Notes: generated from the letters alone by a model not told the origin. A DNA stretch of 64,000 nucleotides from an uncultured Nitrospirales bacterium (GCA_964467615.1 CAYXRK010000003.1:14624-78623), one strand, 5' to 3'; positions 47,919-60,116 are shown, numbered from the stretch's first letter. A program made the numbers and translations.

Positions 47919-47995
47919 GGGGCCGTAGCTCAGTTTGGGAGAGCGCATGACTGGCAGTCATGAGGTCGAGGGTTCGATCCCCTTCGGCTCCACCA
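47919..47995 (+). tRNA. tRNA-Ala (anticodon GGC)
   Basis: Cloverleaf readable by eye. Acceptor stem ggggccg/cggctcc with the G3:U70 Ala identity pair, D-arm gctc-agtttggga-gagc, anticodon stem catga/tcatg with loop ctGGCag, T-arm gaggg-ttcgatc-ccctt, discriminator A, encoded CCA. Confidence 0.9.
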
Positions 47996-48952: not shown

Positions 48953-49028
48953 CACTATCAGTTCCAGTTTAGGCGGGCCGGGCGCGTCCCGGTCCGCCTT
49001 TTTTGTGTCTGGCATAGGCGTTTTCGTC

Positions 49029-49667
49029 ATGGCTTTCACGGTTGAACAGTTCATCAAGACTCGTCCGTACCTTTATCATGTGAGTGTGAAGGTGAACCTA
49101 ACTCTCATTCGCGAGCACAAATTCTTGTGGTGTGCCGAGGAACTCACTCGACGTGGAAATCGGCCCAGCCTTTCCAGCGCCAAGCGGCCCGATGATGTGT
49201 ATGTCGATGTTGATGGAACGAAAGTTTGTATACGTGATCAGGCCCCGCTGCACCAGGGCAACATAGAATTTGAAAGTGGCTGGACTTTCGGCAATGTGTT
49301 GCAGGACTTGAATTCGCGTGTGTACTTTTGGTCGGGCACAACTAAAGGTCCAACCGAATACGGTCGGCGATACCTCGCACGCTATCGATTGAAGCAACCC
49401 GTCATCCTGCGAATCCGTACCTCGGACGCGTTCGCTGTTAATTCGCCACCCGAGTTTTGCAAGTACAACTCCGGATCGCCGCGGTGCAGTGGTGGACGGA
49501 AGGGCCCACGGGGGCCAAACACTTTCTTGCGGCGCGAAGCGTGTCCATTCACCAGCGGTAAAGTGGTCGAAGTGACGTTTCGGGCTCAGATGAAGCTACC
49601 GAACGCCGTCGAGATCGCGGAGAGTTACGCGGGGCCTTGGGCCGACATCGACGAACTCCGGAGTTGA
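49029..49667 (+). CDS. hypothetical protein on a low-GC island; weak ADP-ribosyltransferase-fold (DarT/DUF4433-like) resemblance
   Basis: 212 aa with markedly lower GC (~50%) than the flanks. 'LYHVSVKVNLTLIREHKFLW' resembles the YHxT..NLxSIL N-terminus of DUF4433, and 'GNIEFESGW' could be an ExE motif. Speculative; no macrodomain partner is present. Confidence 0.3.
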   Translation: MAFTVEQFIKTRPYLYHVSVKVNLTLIREHKFLWCAEELTRRGNRPSLSSAKRPDDVYVDVDGTKVCIRDQAPLHQGNIEFESGWTFGNVLQDLNSRVYFWSGTTKGPTEYGRRYLARYRLKQPVILRIRTSDAFAVNSPPEFCKYNSGSPRCSGGRKGPRGPNTFLRREACPFTSGKVVEVTFRAQMKLPNAVEIAESYAGPWADIDELRS

Positions 49668-49908
49668 TGTCCCTTTCTGCCCGCAACAGCCCCTGGCAAA
49701 AGTCGCCCCACGACACTACGACGCCGCGCCCCGCCACATCCGCCCTGAGCCTGTCGAAGCGCGCCGCTCCGTTCGCCCTGAGCTTGTCGAAGGGTGCTAT
49801 CGAAGGGCCACCTATTTTCGTGCTTCGAGCATCGATTGAAACCATACGCGCGTTATGTGAAAATATATACAGTATATCGGGTTTTGAAACGATGGAGGGC
49901 ACGTCGCG

Positions 49909-50780
49909 TGAAGCGTGAACTCATATCCAAGCTGCACGGCGATTTCGAGCAACTGGTTCAGCGCGAGCAGGAGTCGGGAGTCGAGTTTTGGCTCGCACGC
50001 GACCTGCAACACCTCCTTGAATACGCTCGATGGGAGAATTTTTCTAAAGTCATCGAGAAGGCCAGAAGTGCTTGCGAGAATGCAGGTTACAGCACCGCCG
50101 ACCATTTTCTTGATGTCACGAAAATGGTCGATATCGGTTCCGGTGCCCAGCGTCCTATCGAGGACATCGCGCTCACCCGGTACGCGTGCTACCTCATCGC
50201 CCAGAACGGCGATCCCGCCAAGCCCGTCATCGCCTTTGCCCAGACCTACTTCGCGGTCCAGACCCGCAAGCAGGAAATCATCGAAAAGCGTCTCGCCGAG
50301 GTCGAGCGCCTGTCCGCGCGCAAAAAACTCACTGCGTCTGAGATAGAACTTTCAGGCATCATCTATGAACGCGTCGGCGACGAGCGGGCCTTCGGCCGCA
50401 TTCGAAGCAAGGGCGATATGGCGCTGTTTGGCGGACTGACAACGCAAGACATGAAGGACCGCCTCAGCGTTCCGAAGGGCCGCCCGCTCGCGGATTTCCT
50501 GCCCACCATCACCATCAAGGCCAAAGACTTCGCGAACGAGATCACCAACTTCAACATCAAGCGCGACGACTTGCGGACCGATCCCACCATCTCCGCCGAG
50601 CACGTGCGCAACAACACCGATGTTCGCAACTTGCTACACAAGCGAAGCATTGTCCCGGAAGAACTCCCCGCAGCGGAAGACACTCGGAAAATCGAACGCA
50701 GGCTCGCTTCGGAGGACAAGAAACTGCCCCAAGAAGCGAAAAAGCTTGAATGGCATGACAACGAAGTAGATGACGACTGA
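49909..50780 (+). CDS. dinD: DNA-damage-inducible protein D / RhuM-family protein
   Basis: '[33 protein letters not shown]' is nearly identical to the E. coli DinD block '[33 protein letters not shown]'. GTG start at 49909 with GGAGGG 9 nt upstream. Confidence 0.8.
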
Positions 50781-51905: not shown

Positions 51906-51938
51906 AACATAAAAGAAGGGCCGGCGCGAAACCGGCCC
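51906..51938 (-). terminator. intrinsic terminator downstream of trxA (minus strand): gggccgg-tttcgcg-ccggccc followed by TTCTTTTAT
   Basis: Perfect 7-bp GC stem with 7-nt loop at 51918-51938 (plus coordinates). The T-tract on the minus strand corresponds to 51908-51917. Confidence 0.65.
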
Positions 51939-51966: not shown

Positions 51967-52287
51967 CTACTTCGAAGCGGCGTCGATGGCCGCAGCCAAG
52001 TCGGCCTTGCGGGTCACGCCTATGAACTGCTTGGCGACCTGTCCGTCTTTCATGACCAACAAGGTGGGAATGCTGCCCACGTTGTAGCGGACCGCCAAGT
52101 CGCTTTCGTCGTCTACGTTGATTTTGCCGACCTTCGCCTTGCCCGCGTATTCGCCCGCGAGCTCATCGACGAGCGGAGCAATCATTTTGCATGGGCCGCA
52201 CCATTCCGCCCAGAAATCCACGAGCGTGACGCCCTCGTTCACCGTAGCGTCGAAATTGGCCGTCGTTAGCTGCAATGCCTTACCCAT
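51967..52287 (-). CDS. trxA: thioredoxin
   Basis: 'LVDFWAEWCGPCKMIAPLVDEL' contains the WCGPC active site. 106 aa from ATG 52287. Confidence 0.95.
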   Translation of the reverse strand: MGKALQLTTANFDATVNEGVTLVDFWAEWCGPCKMIAPLVDELAGEYAGKAKVGKINVDDESDLAVRYNVGSIPTLLVMKDGQVAKQFIGVTRKADLAAAIDAASK

Positions 52288-52493
52288 GATTCTCGCTCCT
52301 TTAGTCCAAGCGCCCTTGGCGAACTGCAACCAGCCCCAGGGCGTATCCAACGTAAACCGACTAAGTATAACGAATATTCCGGGGGTGGGGAAACTTGGCG
52401 TCGATACGGTGGAGGTCTCGTAGCGCTAAAAGCTAGACTTCGCGTGTCCAATGCGTTTCTACATGTGACTTGGCTCTGATTACGGACGTACCT

Positions 52494-53435
52494 ATGAAGC
52501 CCGAAGAAGCGGTAGAGGAAGTCCCGTTTGACTCCGCGATTGATTTGGTCAACTACCTGCGTCCGAGCAATCCGGTTTGGGGAGCAGACCGCGATAATCC
52601 GTGGGTATTCCGCGGCCACAGGGATGCGGAATGGGAACTCAAACCTTGCGCATGGCGCAAGGACGGCGAGTACCGGTTAAAACCTGTCTCGGATTTTTTT
52701 GATAGTCTGGCAAGAGAAAAGGTCAAGAGACGCCAAGCAACTGGAATAAGCACTTGCGATTCCGAAGTCGAAGTGATTAAGTCGATCGCCGCGCAATTGC
52801 ACGTGTTGGAGGATTTCGTCTCGCTGGCAAACGAGATAGGAATCGGAGAAGGCCTAAACCCATTTTGTCCAACCGCCCGAGGTTTTCTTGGCCACACTAA
52901 CCTTCGCTATGACTTCCAGAGGAAAGAGGAAACCGCGTTCGCCCAACACCACGGCATTCCGACATTTCTGCTTGACTGGACCCACGATCCATTTACTGCG
53001 ACGTTTTTTGCCGCAGCGGGGGATCAAACCACGGACCAAACCACGGCGCAAAGCATCGCGATTTGGGCATACGATACTCGAGTCGATATGGGCCACATCG
53101 GGATTAGTCGATACGAGCCGTCCGGTGCGTTGACTCGATATGCGCACGCTCAACGCAGTGTGTTTCTATACCATGAAAAAGGTGTGGATTGGAGAATGTC
53201 CAAAGGATGCTGGCCCTCGATCTTGAACGCACTACAGGAAGAGGGGGTATCGCGGTTCGAAAGGCAGCCGTTTAGAAAGGTTACGCTACCACGCGATCAG
53301 TGCAACGCTCTTCTCAGAATTCTATGGCGCGAACGGAAGACGCTTGCCCACTTGATGCCGTCGCCGGACAACGTGGCTAAGACCGTTATGAAATCTGGCG
53401 CGGCACTGTTATCGAACCAGGACAGTGATCCTTGA
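52494..53435 (+). CDS. FRG-domain protein (low-GC island)
   Basis: 'NPWVFRGHRDAEWELKP' is the eponymous F-R-G motif in its usual context. ~313 aa, gene GC ~52% against ~66% background. Start is ATG 52494 or TTG 52470. Confidence 0.65.
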   Translation: MKPEEAVEEVPFDSAIDLVNYLRPSNPVWGADRDNPWVFRGHRDAEWELKPCAWRKDGEYRLKPVSDFFDSLAREKVKRRQATGISTCDSEVEVIKSIAAQLHVLEDFVSLANEIGIGEGLNPFCPTARGFLGHTNLRYDFQRKEETAFAQHHGIPTFLLDWTHDPFTATFFAAAGDQTTDQTTAQSIAIWAYDTRVDMGHIGISRYEPSGALTRYAHAQRSVFLYHEKGVDWRMSKGCWPSILNALQEEGVSRFERQPFRKVTLPRDQCNALLRILWRERKTLAHLMPSPDNVAKTVMKSGAALLSNQDSDP

Positions 53436-53496
53436 ACATGCCTTCGCAGGAATGACAGAGGTAGCGCAAACTAATTTGCGATCGTGATGAGCTACG

Positions 53497-53772
53497 GTGG
53501 AAGATGAACGCATGACGATTACGAAACAGATTGTTGCCGAGCGGCTTGCGGCATACATTCACCACGAGTTGTCTATCGGCGAACTGGTGGATTGGGCGGA
53601 ACGGGCGATGATGGACGGTGAATTCGAGACGAATGACGTGGCCGAGTTGGCGGCGGTCGTCGCCCGGCTGGGCGTCGCGGACGCGCGCGCATTCGGGCTG
53701 ACCTGGGAAGATTGCGAAGACCTGCTCCGCCGCGTGGGATACCAGGCCCGAGTAGAAATAGTTTCCGCATAA
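53497..53772 (+). CDS. small acidic hypothetical protein (86-91 aa) immediately downstream of the FRG gene
   Basis: ORF with good codon periodicity, no known motif (..ELSIGELVDWAERAMMDGEFETNDVAELAAVVARLG..). Alternative start 53512. Confidence 0.4.
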   Translation: MEDERMTITKQIVAERLAAYIHHELSIGELVDWAERAMMDGEFETNDVAELAAVVARLGVADARAFGLTWEDCEDLLRRVGYQARVEIVSA

Positions 53773-53902
53773 CGCCGCATTCGCGCGACGTCAATTGGCG
53801 GTCGCCTCGACAACGCCTAACATCTGTCGCGTACACTACTCAGCGAGCGGCCTGCGGCATGTCGCTAGGCACGCTTCCTTCAACCTCCACGAAGTGAATC
53901 TG

Positions 53903-54874
53903 ATGAAACGAATTGGTGTATTGACCAGCGGCGGCGATTCGCCCGGCATGAATGCGGCGATCCGCGCCGTGACGCGGGCCGCCATTTACCACGGCCTCGA
54001 AGTCGTCGGTATTGAGCGTGGGTACCAGGGTCTCGTCGACTCGATGTTGCGGCCGCTGTACCTGCGGTCGGTCTCGGGGATTATCAATCGCGGCGGCACG
54101 ATACTTCGGACCGCGCGCTGCCAAGAGTTCTACGAAATCGACGGGCGCGAAGCCGCCGCGAAAACCTTGGACGAAGAGCGCATCGATGGCCTCGTGGTTA
54201 TCGGCGGCGACGGGTCCTATCGCGGCGCGGAGGCGCTCGAGCAGGAACACGGCTCGCGCTGTATCGGGCTGCCGGGCACTATCGACAATGACATCGGCGG
54301 CACCGACTACACCATCGGTTTTGACACGGCGCTGAACACGGCCATCGAGGCCATCGACCGCATCCGCGATACGGCGGGTTCGCACGAGCGCGTGTTTTTC
54401 GTCGAGGTGATGGGGCGCGGCAGCGGCTACATCGCAATCATGAGCGCGATTGCGGGCGGCGCGGAACACGTCCTGGTGCCGGAAACGCCCACGAGCATCG
54501 AGACCCTAATTGCACGCATCAAACAAGGACAAGAAACGGGCAAGACGTCGCACATCATCGTCGTCGCCGAGGGAGACGAAGCCGGCGGGGCGATGGAGAT
54601 CGCGCGCAAAGTCGAGGCCGGATCGGACATTCGAGGCACGCGCGTCACCGTGATCGGCCACTTGCAGCGCGGCGGCGGCCCGACGGCATTCGACCGCATC
54701 CTCGCTAGCCGAATGGGCGTGTTCGCGGTCGAGACACTCCTCGCCGGCGAAGCGGGCAAAATGGTGGGCATTCGCGGCGGGCAGCTCGTCCTCAAACCCT
54801 TCTCTGCGGCACATGAAGAATCAGCGCGTTTCGACCCAGGCTTGAGCAAGATTGCCGAGATCCTGTCGATTTGA
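53903..54874 (+). CDS. pfkA: ATP-dependent 6-phosphofructokinase
   Basis: 'MKRIGVLTSGGDSPGMNAAIRAV', 'GGDGSYRGA', 'GLPGTIDNDI', 'MGRGSGYIA' are the canonical PFK-A motifs. Confidence 0.9.
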   Translation: MKRIGVLTSGGDSPGMNAAIRAVTRAAIYHGLEVVGIERGYQGLVDSMLRPLYLRSVSGIINRGGTILRTARCQEFYEIDGREAAAKTLDEERIDGLVVIGGDGSYRGAEALEQEHGSRCIGLPGTIDNDIGGTDYTIGFDTALNTAIEAIDRIRDTAGSHERVFFVEVMGRGSGYIAIMSAIAGGAEHVLVPETPTSIETLIARIKQGQETGKTSHIIVVAEGDEAGGAMEIARKVEAGSDIRGTRVTVIGHLQRGGGPTAFDRILASRMGVFAVETLLAGEAGKMVGIRGGQLVLKPFSAAHEESARFDPGLSKIAEILSI

Positions 54875-58336: not shown

Positions 58337-58431
58337 GTTGGCTCCAATTTCACCGATAGGATCGCGTCTTCAGAATGCCGGATGCGGTATAGTATGACAA
58401 TCCAAAATCTATGTGCCTCGGAAACACCGCT

Positions 58432-59484
58432 ATGTACCAATCGCTGAGCATTAATCACCTGCGAGGAATTCGCGAGCTTACTCTTAAACCATTGCAGCGG
58501 ATTTCACTGATTACCGGGCGCAATGGCTGTGGAAAAACCACTATTCTAGAAGCGATGTTTTTGATTGTGGGTCACCACAATCCTCAGATTCCGTTCAGCG
58601 TCGGTGGCTGGCGTGGAATGTTAGAAGAATCCGCAGAGGAGACCGTTTCCTGGTTGTTCGGGTCAAAAGAAACTGCGGCCCCAATTGAGATTAGCGTTGA
58701 ACGGGAGGGTATCTCCTTCGCGTTGTCCGTAACGTTTCTATCGCCGGAACAAATGAAAGACGAAAAAATCTATCTTGTAGACCCTGTTTCCGGCGAACAG
58801 AGTACAACTGAAATTGGTCAAGTGCCCGGAATCAAAATGATCCTAAAGAAAGGCGATGTGGCCCTCTCAGAGTCGGGATTGATACTACTTCGAGACGGCC
58901 CAGCCATTGGCGCATCCGCTCCCCAGCTTGGGTATGCCTCATTCATCAACGCGTTCACCACAACGACGAAGGACAATCCCAAGCGATTCAGTCGTTGCCG
59001 TGAACGTGGCCAAGTCGAGAAAATAATAGAATCTTTGCAGATAATTGAAAAGCGGCTTACCAACCTGGTGATCCACGTCTCGACGAGCGGGAAAACAGGC
59101 ATTTATGCCGATGTGCAGGGTTCTCTGATTCCGATGCCCCTTCTCGGGCAAGGCGCAAGCCGCCTACTTTCCATTGTATTGGCCATTTTCGATGCGGAGA
59201 ATGGTGTCGTATTAGTCGATGAGATTGAAAACGGGTTTCATCACTCGGCGATCGAGAAGATTTGGGAAGCGATTGATGCCGCATCGAAAGGCGCGAACGT
59301 ACAGGTCATGGCGACCACTCACAGTCTAGAATGTATCGACGCTGCGCATCGCCACTTCGAGAAATCGGGAAACTACGATTTCGGATTGCATCGCCTCGAT
59401 GCCTCCAACGGGCTGATCAAAGACGTTGTATACCGGGAAGAAATCCTTGAGGCTGCTATTTCCGGCGGAATCGAGGTTCGTTAG
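58432..59484 (+). CDS. ABC-type/AAA_21-like ATPase of the OLD/PARIS (AriA-like) class
   Basis: 'MYQSLSINHLRGIRELTL' (N-terminal MxxLxIxNFR-type strand), Walker A 'GRNGCGKTT', Q-loop, signature-like 'LGQGASRLLSIVLAI', Walker B 'VVLVDEIENGFH', H-loop 'MATTHS'. GC ~50%. Alternative ATG at 58411. Confidence 0.75.
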   Translation: MYQSLSINHLRGIRELTLKPLQRISLITGRNGCGKTTILEAMFLIVGHHNPQIPFSVGGWRGMLEESAEETVSWLFGSKETAAPIEISVEREGISFALSVTFLSPEQMKDEKIYLVDPVSGEQSTTEIGQVPGIKMILKKGDVALSESGLILLRDGPAIGASAPQLGYASFINAFTTTTKDNPKRFSRCRERGQVEKIIESLQIIEKRLTNLVIHVSTSGKTGIYADVQGSLIPMPLLGQGASRLLSIVLAIFDAENGVVLVDEIENGFHHSAIEKIWEAIDAASKGANVQVMATTHSLECIDAAHRHFEKSGNYDFGLHRLDASNGLIKDVVYREEILEAAISGGIEVR

Positions 59485-60116
59485 TGGCCAGTTCCACCAC
59501 GAAGATTGAAATCAAGTCGCCATGTCTCATTTTGGTCGAAGGACAAGATGATAAGCGCTTCATTTCACAGAACCTTAGGTTTGTTAATATTGATGAGGGC
59601 AGGTGCCAAGTAGAACCCATTGGAGGCAAAGACAGTTTGCGAAATAGGCTTGAAGCCTTGGTGATCTCGCCCGAGTTCGTTACTGTTGAACGCCTGGCAC
59701 TACTGCGCGATGCCGATACGAATGCAGAGTCAGCATTTCAAAGTTGTGCTGGTGCGATTCGAGCCGCGCAACTAGATCCTCCGAACTCCATTGGCGCATT
59801 CTCCGAGGGCACTCCCCGCGTCGGTGTCTTCATACTTCCCGGTTATTCGAGAAGCGGAGAGTTAGAGGATCTGTTGCTTGACTCGATCGAGGGCTGCAAG
59901 AGGACCGGCCTTGCGCAGGAGTATTTGTCACGCGTGAAGAGCGCGGGCCTCCCAACTGACAAAGACTCGAAAGCGGTGGTGTACTCATACTTGGCGTGCC
60001 AGGAACGATCAGGACTCCGGATCGGCGAGGCGACCGAGAAGGGGTATTTCCCACTCAATTCGCCAGCTTTTCGGCCGTTGCAAGACTTCTTGAAAGAGTT
60101 CGCTTCCGGTACGTAA
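59484..60116 (+). CDS. Toprim-like small protein (DUF4276/DUF4435-like, OLD-family nuclease domain encoded separately)
   Basis: GTG start overlaps the ATPase stop by 1 nt (taGtg). 'PCLILVEGQDDKRF' is a Toprim motif-1 glutamate in a beta-strand context. 'ALLRDADTNAE' is a DxD metal-binding motif. 210 aa, low GC. Confidence 0.6.
   Translation: MASSTTKIEIKSPCLILVEGQDDKRFISQNLRFVNIDEGRCQVEPIGGKDSLRNRLEALVISPEFVTVERLALLRDADTNAESAFQSCAGAIRAAQLDPPNSIGAFSEGTPRVGVFILPGYSRSGELEDLLLDSIEGCKRTGLAQEYLSRVKSAGLPTDKDSKAVVYSYLACQERSGLRIGEATEKGYFPLNSPAFRPLQDFLKEFASGT

Follow-up and report, generated by a model that had tools for sequence, protein, structure and literature searches.

An FRG-domain gene and a small acidic orphan gene between trxA and pfkA are probably two unrelated mobile genes

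The FRG-domain gene and the small acidic ORF (ORF B) that share the interval from trxA to pfkA in the DNA analysed here (one stretch of 64,000 nucleotides, hereafter the window) are best read as two unrelated mobile genes, a lone and predicted NAD-using FRG enzyme and an orphan, putatively antitoxin-like gene, rather than as a co-evolved pair, and we put the probability of this reading at roughly 70%. The preliminary description of the locus had taken ORF B for a dedicated small downstream partner of the FRG protein, in a toxin/effector–immunity or sensor–effector pair; when we surveyed both families, ORF B was found at none of 80 FRG loci and FRG at none of 81 ORF B loci. Because of this reciprocal non-co-occurrence, and because the two genes differ in their usual partners, in their distributions (viruses for FRG, chromosomes only for ORF B) and in their patterns of divergence, we regard them as independent. 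Relatives of the FRG protein reach no higher than 35% identity, compared to 60–72% across ~1,600 ORF B proteins, which argues for unrelated histories. The FRG–ORF B pair itself was found only in contigs of this organism.

Pfam searches confirmed that the FRG gene and the small ORF stand between trxA and pfkA, as originally described (Table 1). Beyond trxA lies asd, mfd follows pfkA, and a terminator scan placed a terminator-like hairpin of trxA at 51938–51918. The arrangement is not an assembly chimera or artefact, as window positions 52175–54324 recur at 99.95–100% in two independent assemblies in ENA, both from samples of Hainich groundwater. The nearest named relatives of PfkA belong to Candidatus Hydrogenedentota, and on this basis we read the source as a Candidatus Hydrogenedentota MAG. 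In the nearest available relatives (PfkA 67–70% identical), pfkA has different neighbours, and this difference in gene order leaves no empty site for comparison with the trxA–pfkA insertion.

Table 1. Positions of the FRG gene, ORF B and their flanks, counted from the first letter of the window.
Feature	Positions	Strand	Assignment or basis
trxA, left housekeeping flank	51967..52350	-	Pfam Thioredoxin, E 1.4e-30
FRG-domain gene, 313 aa	52494..53435	+	Pfam FRG, PADLOC PDC-S15; candidate single-gene defence effector
Intergenic spacer, 76 nt, FRG stop to ORF B	53436..53511	+	contains 6-bp hairpin
Start of cassette DNA homology	53498..53511	+	nhmmer profile from 47 cassette loci
ORF B, acidic, 86 aa, orphan second cassette gene	53512..53772	+	homologue comparison
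pfkA, right housekeeping flank	53900..54874	+	Pfam PFK, E 3.3e-111

The FRG gene is compositionally foreign and was acquired horizontally: its GC content is 0.533 and its GC3 0.573, with GC3 values of 0.78–0.82 for trxA, asd, pfkA and mfd. The locus had been called a low-GC island on a background of ~66% GC. The background is in fact about 0.61 (window mean 0.611), and the description fits the FRG gene but not ORF B (GC 0.602, GC3 0.70), which does not share the low-GC signal. Members of the ORF B family have a GC content of 0.60 ± 0.03 that hardly tracks the host, and ORF B is less GC-poor than the FRG gene because the window copy sits on this family mean.

No integrase, tRNA or meaningful flanking repeat was found as an island boundary around the FRG/ORF B insertion. 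The sole tRNA in the 46–62 kb interval, a tRNA-Ala (GGC) at 47919–47995 upstream of rpsD, adjoins none of the three low-GC patches of the region. A 17-nt direct repeat (94%) consists of CGAGCGGCTTGCGGCAT at 53538–53554, within the 5′ part of ORF B, and CGAGCGGCCTGCGGCAT at 53844–53860, in the spacer before pfkA. A profile search detected no second ORF B copy at the repeat site, and the repeat may be a chance match or a recombination scar.

The FRG assignment held in HMM searches. The protein, which contains PWVFRGHRDAEWELKP, matched Pfam FRG (PF08867) in two stretches (E 2.9e-16; 60.6 bits, gathering score 25), 14 PADLOC PDC-S15 models (best E 2.1e-21) and phrog_4962 (E 1.5e-22). An identical 313-aa protein in the database confirms the ATG start. 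In sequence space, however, the protein is an outlier, with 55 relatives among 5.8 billion clustered proteins and best identities of 34–35%. In an alignment of 36 sequences that includes the window protein, and whose members all match PF08867, the invariant positions are W37, R40 and G41 (the FRG motif), A150-Q-H-H-G-I155, T157, L160, D161, Q220, P289 and D292, and the window protein has every one of them. An AlphaFold2 model built from the 36-relative alignment consists of one compact domain (pLDDT 89.3, pTM 0.88). The retention of all family-invariant residues, together with the confidence of the model, suggests that the FRG protein is probably active.

The FRG family has been placed in the ADP-ribosyltransferase (ART) superfamily, with a predicted role as an NAD+-consuming anti-viral effector, and it is listed as an ART-like family (PMC12522546). 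The window protein may resemble ART NADase effectors (RES-domain toxins, TreTu, pertussis-like PltA): the top PDB matches of its model in Foldseek were the ART toxins TreTu, TreX, PltA, PltC and Tpt1, at weak E-values of 0.3–7.5. Foldseek, PDB-profile and Pfam searches gave no significant sequence or fold match to the ART superfamily; PDB sequence-profile searches returned nothing for either the FRG or the ORF B family, and a Pfam scan of the 36 FRG relatives at E ≤ 10 gave no recurrent weak match to ART-clan families. In the predicted model, the first core strand ends with the conserved Arg (R40) and a later strand starts with the conserved Gln (Q220), which may correspond to the positions of Arg and Glu/Gln in R-S-E ARTs. 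Taken together, the literature prediction and the weak fold ranking are consistent with an ART-fold enzyme that would consume NAD+ or transfer ADP-ribose in an abortive-infection response. In the mechanism that we consider most likely, the horizontally acquired gene would operate as a single-gene module: upon phage infection, the enzyme would hydrolyse NAD+ or transfer ADP-ribose and thereby stop the infected cell. Its putative NAD+ pocket would be formed by R40 of the FRG motif, the AQHHGIPTxLLDW segment and Q220, and control of its activity would be built into the single polypeptide, making a separate immunity protein unnecessary. Unlike FRG, which lacks a conserved partner, RES toxins are paired with an Xre antitoxin of their own.

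The FRG family behaves as a lone, horizontally moving gene, in line with its single-gene label in PADLOC, because ORF B is absent from its loci, its neighbours are heterogeneous, it occurs as a lone insert in a phage and its GC content falls below that of its flanks. Our survey, which retrieved only loci with the AQHHGIPT motif and used one genome per species, yielded 197 confirmed relatives, and the best 80 of these 197 loci were analysed with 4-kb flanks. A search of these 80 loci with the ORF B profile in any frame found no member of that family within 4 kb of FRG. Downstream of the FRG stop codon, the size, spacing and strand of the next gene were all heterogeneous, and clustering of neighbouring ORFs across 79–80 loci gave no conserved upstream or downstream family beyond local synteny, exemplified by an M20 peptidase in four Chloroflexota MAGs. 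The preliminary description had itself named the lack of a conserved partner among homologues as one half of what would speak against its proposal, and for that half this lack is what the co-occurrence analysis revealed. In a bulk Pfam scan, the proteins immediately flanking FRG (n = 149) fell into 109 families, including many housekeeping enzymes, the commonest being phage integrase (4), M20 peptidase (4) and PIN_3 (3). FRG genes were on average 7 GC points lower than their flanks, and lower by about 3 points or more in 80% of the loci.

The earlier statement that FRG proteins recur in phages is also supported, by phrog_4962, by 8 IMG/VR contigs with FRG relatives and by the P2-like Salmonella phage SEN8, in which one inserted gene on the opposite strand, flanked by gpS and gpV and lacking a small neighbour, encodes FRG. 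Thus, neither the 79–80 loci nor SEN8 revealed an obligatory conserved partner, as expected from the single-gene definition of PDC-S15. The SEN8 homologue, alone and on the opposite strand in the gpS–gpV slot, links the family to the defence morons of P2-like prophages; unlike these, the window FRG gene is chromosomal, has housekeeping genes on both sides and is not near any phage genes.

Among the Hydrogenedentota, the Candidatus Hydrogenedentes MAG MFD05684.bin.2.193 has two FRG paralogues (loci L007 and L010). Because the paralogues from this phylum (L007, L010 and L039) are only ~29–31% identical to the window protein, the family appears either to have entered Hydrogenedentota repeatedly or to diverge fast. 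In four surveyed loci, apparent frameshifts or stops split the FRG homologue into two adjacent ORFs (L077, 4788–4952; L057, 1580–1867; L062, 3992–4867; L039, 3938–4123), and these cases suggest that pseudogenisation is frequent, in keeping with an accessory gene that is costly to maintain.

Two further low-GC patches with candidate defence genes occur in the region. One, at 49020–50780 between rpsD and asd, encodes a 215-aa DUF7002 protein and, after it, a DinD/Bro-N protein that matches NCBIfam DNA damage-inducible protein D at 1e-105 and PADLOC PDC-S13 at 7.8e-113. The other, at 58411–60116 directly after mfd, contains an AbiLi-like AAA_15/AAA_21 ATPase of 357 aa (PADLOC AbiLi, 8.1e-50; PDC-M38A) and then a DUF3226 protein of 210 aa (PDC-M38B, 4e-13) whose start abuts the ATPase stop; by these matches and this layout, the two genes are a two-gene candidate defence system. 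Counting the FRG gene, a stretch of 12 kb holds three separate low-GC insertions with candidate defence genes, set among housekeeping genes. Because the two other insertions are so close, the FRG locus lies in a region that is enriched in defence candidates and interspersed with housekeeping genes. The defence or mobile context ascribed to FRG in the preliminary description is thus borne out by its status as a PDC-S15 candidate, by its GC content below that of its flanks and by these two neighbouring insertions.

A different reading of the FRG gene is that it is not an immune effector here but a phage-derived or mobile passenger with some other role, such as modifying a host or phage target to the advantage of a mobile element, or else an inert recent arrival. 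FRG genes do occur inside phage genomes, where such genes can serve the phage; a consensus scan recognised no promoter for the window gene, no integrase, tRNA or flanking repeat delimits its island, and the literature searched contained no experimental validation of PDC-S15 or FRG, and no proof of defence or NADase activity for any of these proteins. We nonetheless regard this reading as unlikely. The window protein keeps all family-invariant residues in a confident model, and the locus lies near the PDC-S13 and PDC-M38/AbiLi-like candidates. PADLOC reportedly derived PDC-S15 from genes enriched in defence neighbourhoods, which also counts against a passenger role.

ORF B belongs to a family of a different kind. 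Its real start is the ATG at 53512, because nearly all of its ~1,600 homologues share a length of 86 aa and the N-terminus MTITKQ; the longest reading, from a GTG at 53497, is 91 aa. The initial characterisation of ORF B as an acidic ORF with no known motif was correct in substance, as its pI is 4.5 and it had no significant match in Pfam, NCBIfam, PADLOC or PHROG (best E 0.043), but the length of 90 aa, counted from that GTG, has to be revised to 86 aa. We found 1581 homologues at E ≤ 1e-3 (60–72% identity, almost all 86 aa), which form 656 clusters at 50% identity, all of them small stand-alone proteins, and the family is present in >555 metagenome loci. An exhaustive profile search for ORF B fusions likewise returned only small stand-alone proteins; where a match was longer, it either was a read-through fusion to the usual partner or had a mis-called start. 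The window copy keeps 22 of the 22 invariant columns of a 30-sequence alignment, with the signature H18, W28 and GVADxRxFGLxWxDC. Structure prediction, suggested earlier for both proteins, was confident for FRG but poor for ORF B: its weak model has five helices (pLDDT 64), found no fold match and showed no recognisable DNA-binding or toxin fold. The family was absent from the plasmid and IMG/VR viral collections searched, and its cassette loci (L003, L004 and L085–L164) are chromosomal only.

ORF B has a usual partner, and it is not FRG. Among the 70 ORF B loci that had enough upstream sequence, 47 are preceded by a small ORF that is conserved, reads up to 78 aa, ends 9 nt before the ORF B ATG and has the C-terminus ...RFWQEIYDDxGxLVExHEK[YF]PVDKGHQKV; this partner matched no family in Pfam, NCBIfam or PADLOC. 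It is truncated to a 3′ stub in 15 of the 70 loci and leaves nothing in 8, as in the window; these 23 loci (33%) are without an intact partner, and their breaks concentrate in the short interval before ORF B (profile positions 211–258). The nhmmer profile of the cassette, built from the 47 loci, aligned to the window only at 53498–53771 (profile positions 247–520 of 521; 206 bits). The first 14 nt of this alignment, before the ATG, correspond to the partner stop codon and ribosome-binding region of intact cassettes, and the homology ends exactly at the ORF B stop codon. Neither the upstream partner nor a second ORF B copy was found elsewhere in the 64-kb window, and the partner is missing beside ORF B as well. 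Because cassette homology starts only at 53498 and the window holds no partner, ORF B is, by this comparison, the orphaned second member of a two-gene cassette that has no annotation.

The layout of this cassette, the size and charge of its second product, its neighbourhood and the frequent 5′ truncation of its upstream gene suggest a toxin–antitoxin-like unit, in which the 86-aa protein would be the antitoxin-like half that survives loss of the partner. An intact copy starts with a small gene (up to 78 aa) whose product ends ...HEK[YF]PVDKGHQKV and continues, after a 9-nt gap, with the 86-aa gene, an order that resembles toxin-first systems; in the window, the upstream gene is missing, and ORF B probably survives as a harmless antitoxin-like remnant. 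Toxin-first type II toxin–antitoxin systems (higBA, hicAB, brnTA) offer the closest parallel in that the cassette is a tight two-gene unit with an acidic second ORF, lies in neighbourhoods rich in toxin–antitoxin genes and is frequently orphaned or truncated; in contrast to these systems, neither cassette protein matches a Pfam, NCBIfam or PADLOC family. The small toxin–antitoxin-type genes around ORF B loci include DUF2283, ParE, a gene whose weak similarity to the PBECR2 nuclease stays under the Pfam cut-off, and one with a PIN-like C-terminus judged by eye. An integron-cassette origin was considered for ORF B and rejected, as attC-like core pairs (RYYYAAC ... GTTRRRY) occurred in 0 of 74 loci and were also missing from the window.

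Whether the B-only unit (ORF B with some 15–50 nt of upstream sequence) is a decayed remnant, or instead a functional, independently mobile module, for example an anti-addiction antitoxin against incoming full cassettes, is a question that leaves the best explanation for FRG untouched, as the module reading is compatible with it. The 23 of 70 loci without an intact partner, with their clustered break points, would fit such a module, as would an intact ORF B that keeps all invariant residues and in which homology stops exactly at the stop codon. The clustering could also reflect selection against the upstream gene that keeps the ORF B ribosome-binding site, and no mobility signature was seen: attC-like sites were absent from the 74 loci, and the window has no repeats around ORF B except the one 17-nt match. 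We therefore hold the module reading to be possible but doubtful.

The hairpin reported in the spacer between the two genes (cgcaaa-ctaa-tttgcg, 6-bp stem) exists, but it lies at 53465–53480 rather than at 53456–53471, a difference of 9 nt, and is no better than chance: folding of the spacer compared to shuffled sequences gave z = 0.06, no T-tract follows the hairpin, and the minimum-free-energy structure does not contain it. A regulatory or terminator role for it was therefore rejected. A terminator scan found no terminator-like site on the + strand between FRG and ORF B, and because no terminator separates the genes, they may share a transcript. The gap between them is 76 nt, compared to 9 nt between ORF B and its usual partner.

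This organisation is part of the case for a dedicated pair, in which the small acidic protein would neutralise or regulate FRG: the genes are on the same strand and 76 nt apart, with their adjacency intact and unterminated, ORF B has the small size and acidity of many antitoxins or immunity proteins, and the FRG protein is a predicted, potentially toxic NAD+-consuming enzyme. The varied small toxin-type genes found beside ORF B elsewhere would, in addition, allow it a mix-and-match partner role. Several results make such a pair very unlikely. Reciprocal co-occurrence was 0/80 and 0/81; ORF B is 60–72% identical to its homologues whatever lies upstream, which would be unexpected of a protein adapted to a new target of 313 aa; and FRG is a PADLOC single-gene candidate that forms a lone insert in SEN8. 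The compositions of the genes also differ (GC3 0.57 for FRG versus 0.70 for ORF B), and ORF B has its own conserved partner, missing here. For a functional link between FRG and ORF B that evolved locally, we see a very small chance, and for the specific case in which the orphan 86-aa protein was captured as an immunity or regulatory subunit of the FRG enzyme, only a slender one. If that capture had occurred, this would be the first two-component FRG system, and ORF B would represent a promiscuous antitoxin module that can be reused against unrelated toxins (its usual partner, other toxin-type genes and an ART-like NADase).

Two unrelated mobile genes side by side thus remain our preferred reading of the locus, and for the FRG family the result is a modest one. 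The window protein shares with FRG/PDC-S15 proteins the FRG and AQHHGIPTxLLDW motifs, a single-gene organisation, variable neighbours and foreign composition; it differs in being a very divergent member, with its nearest relative at 34–35% identity, from a poorly studied phylum, Candidatus Hydrogenedentota. As this subfamily is stand-alone across 80 loci, a single gene is enough for expression tests. The region is also an example of how candidate defence genes can be scattered singly among housekeeping genes rather than gathered in one contiguous island. The ORF B cassette is a by-product of the analysis and a side lead, but possibly a more useful one than the FRG result: it is abundant, absent from Pfam, NCBIfam and PADLOC, and a candidate for a new toxin–antitoxin-like family that would be directly testable through the one-third of sampled copies of the 86-aa gene that are orphaned.
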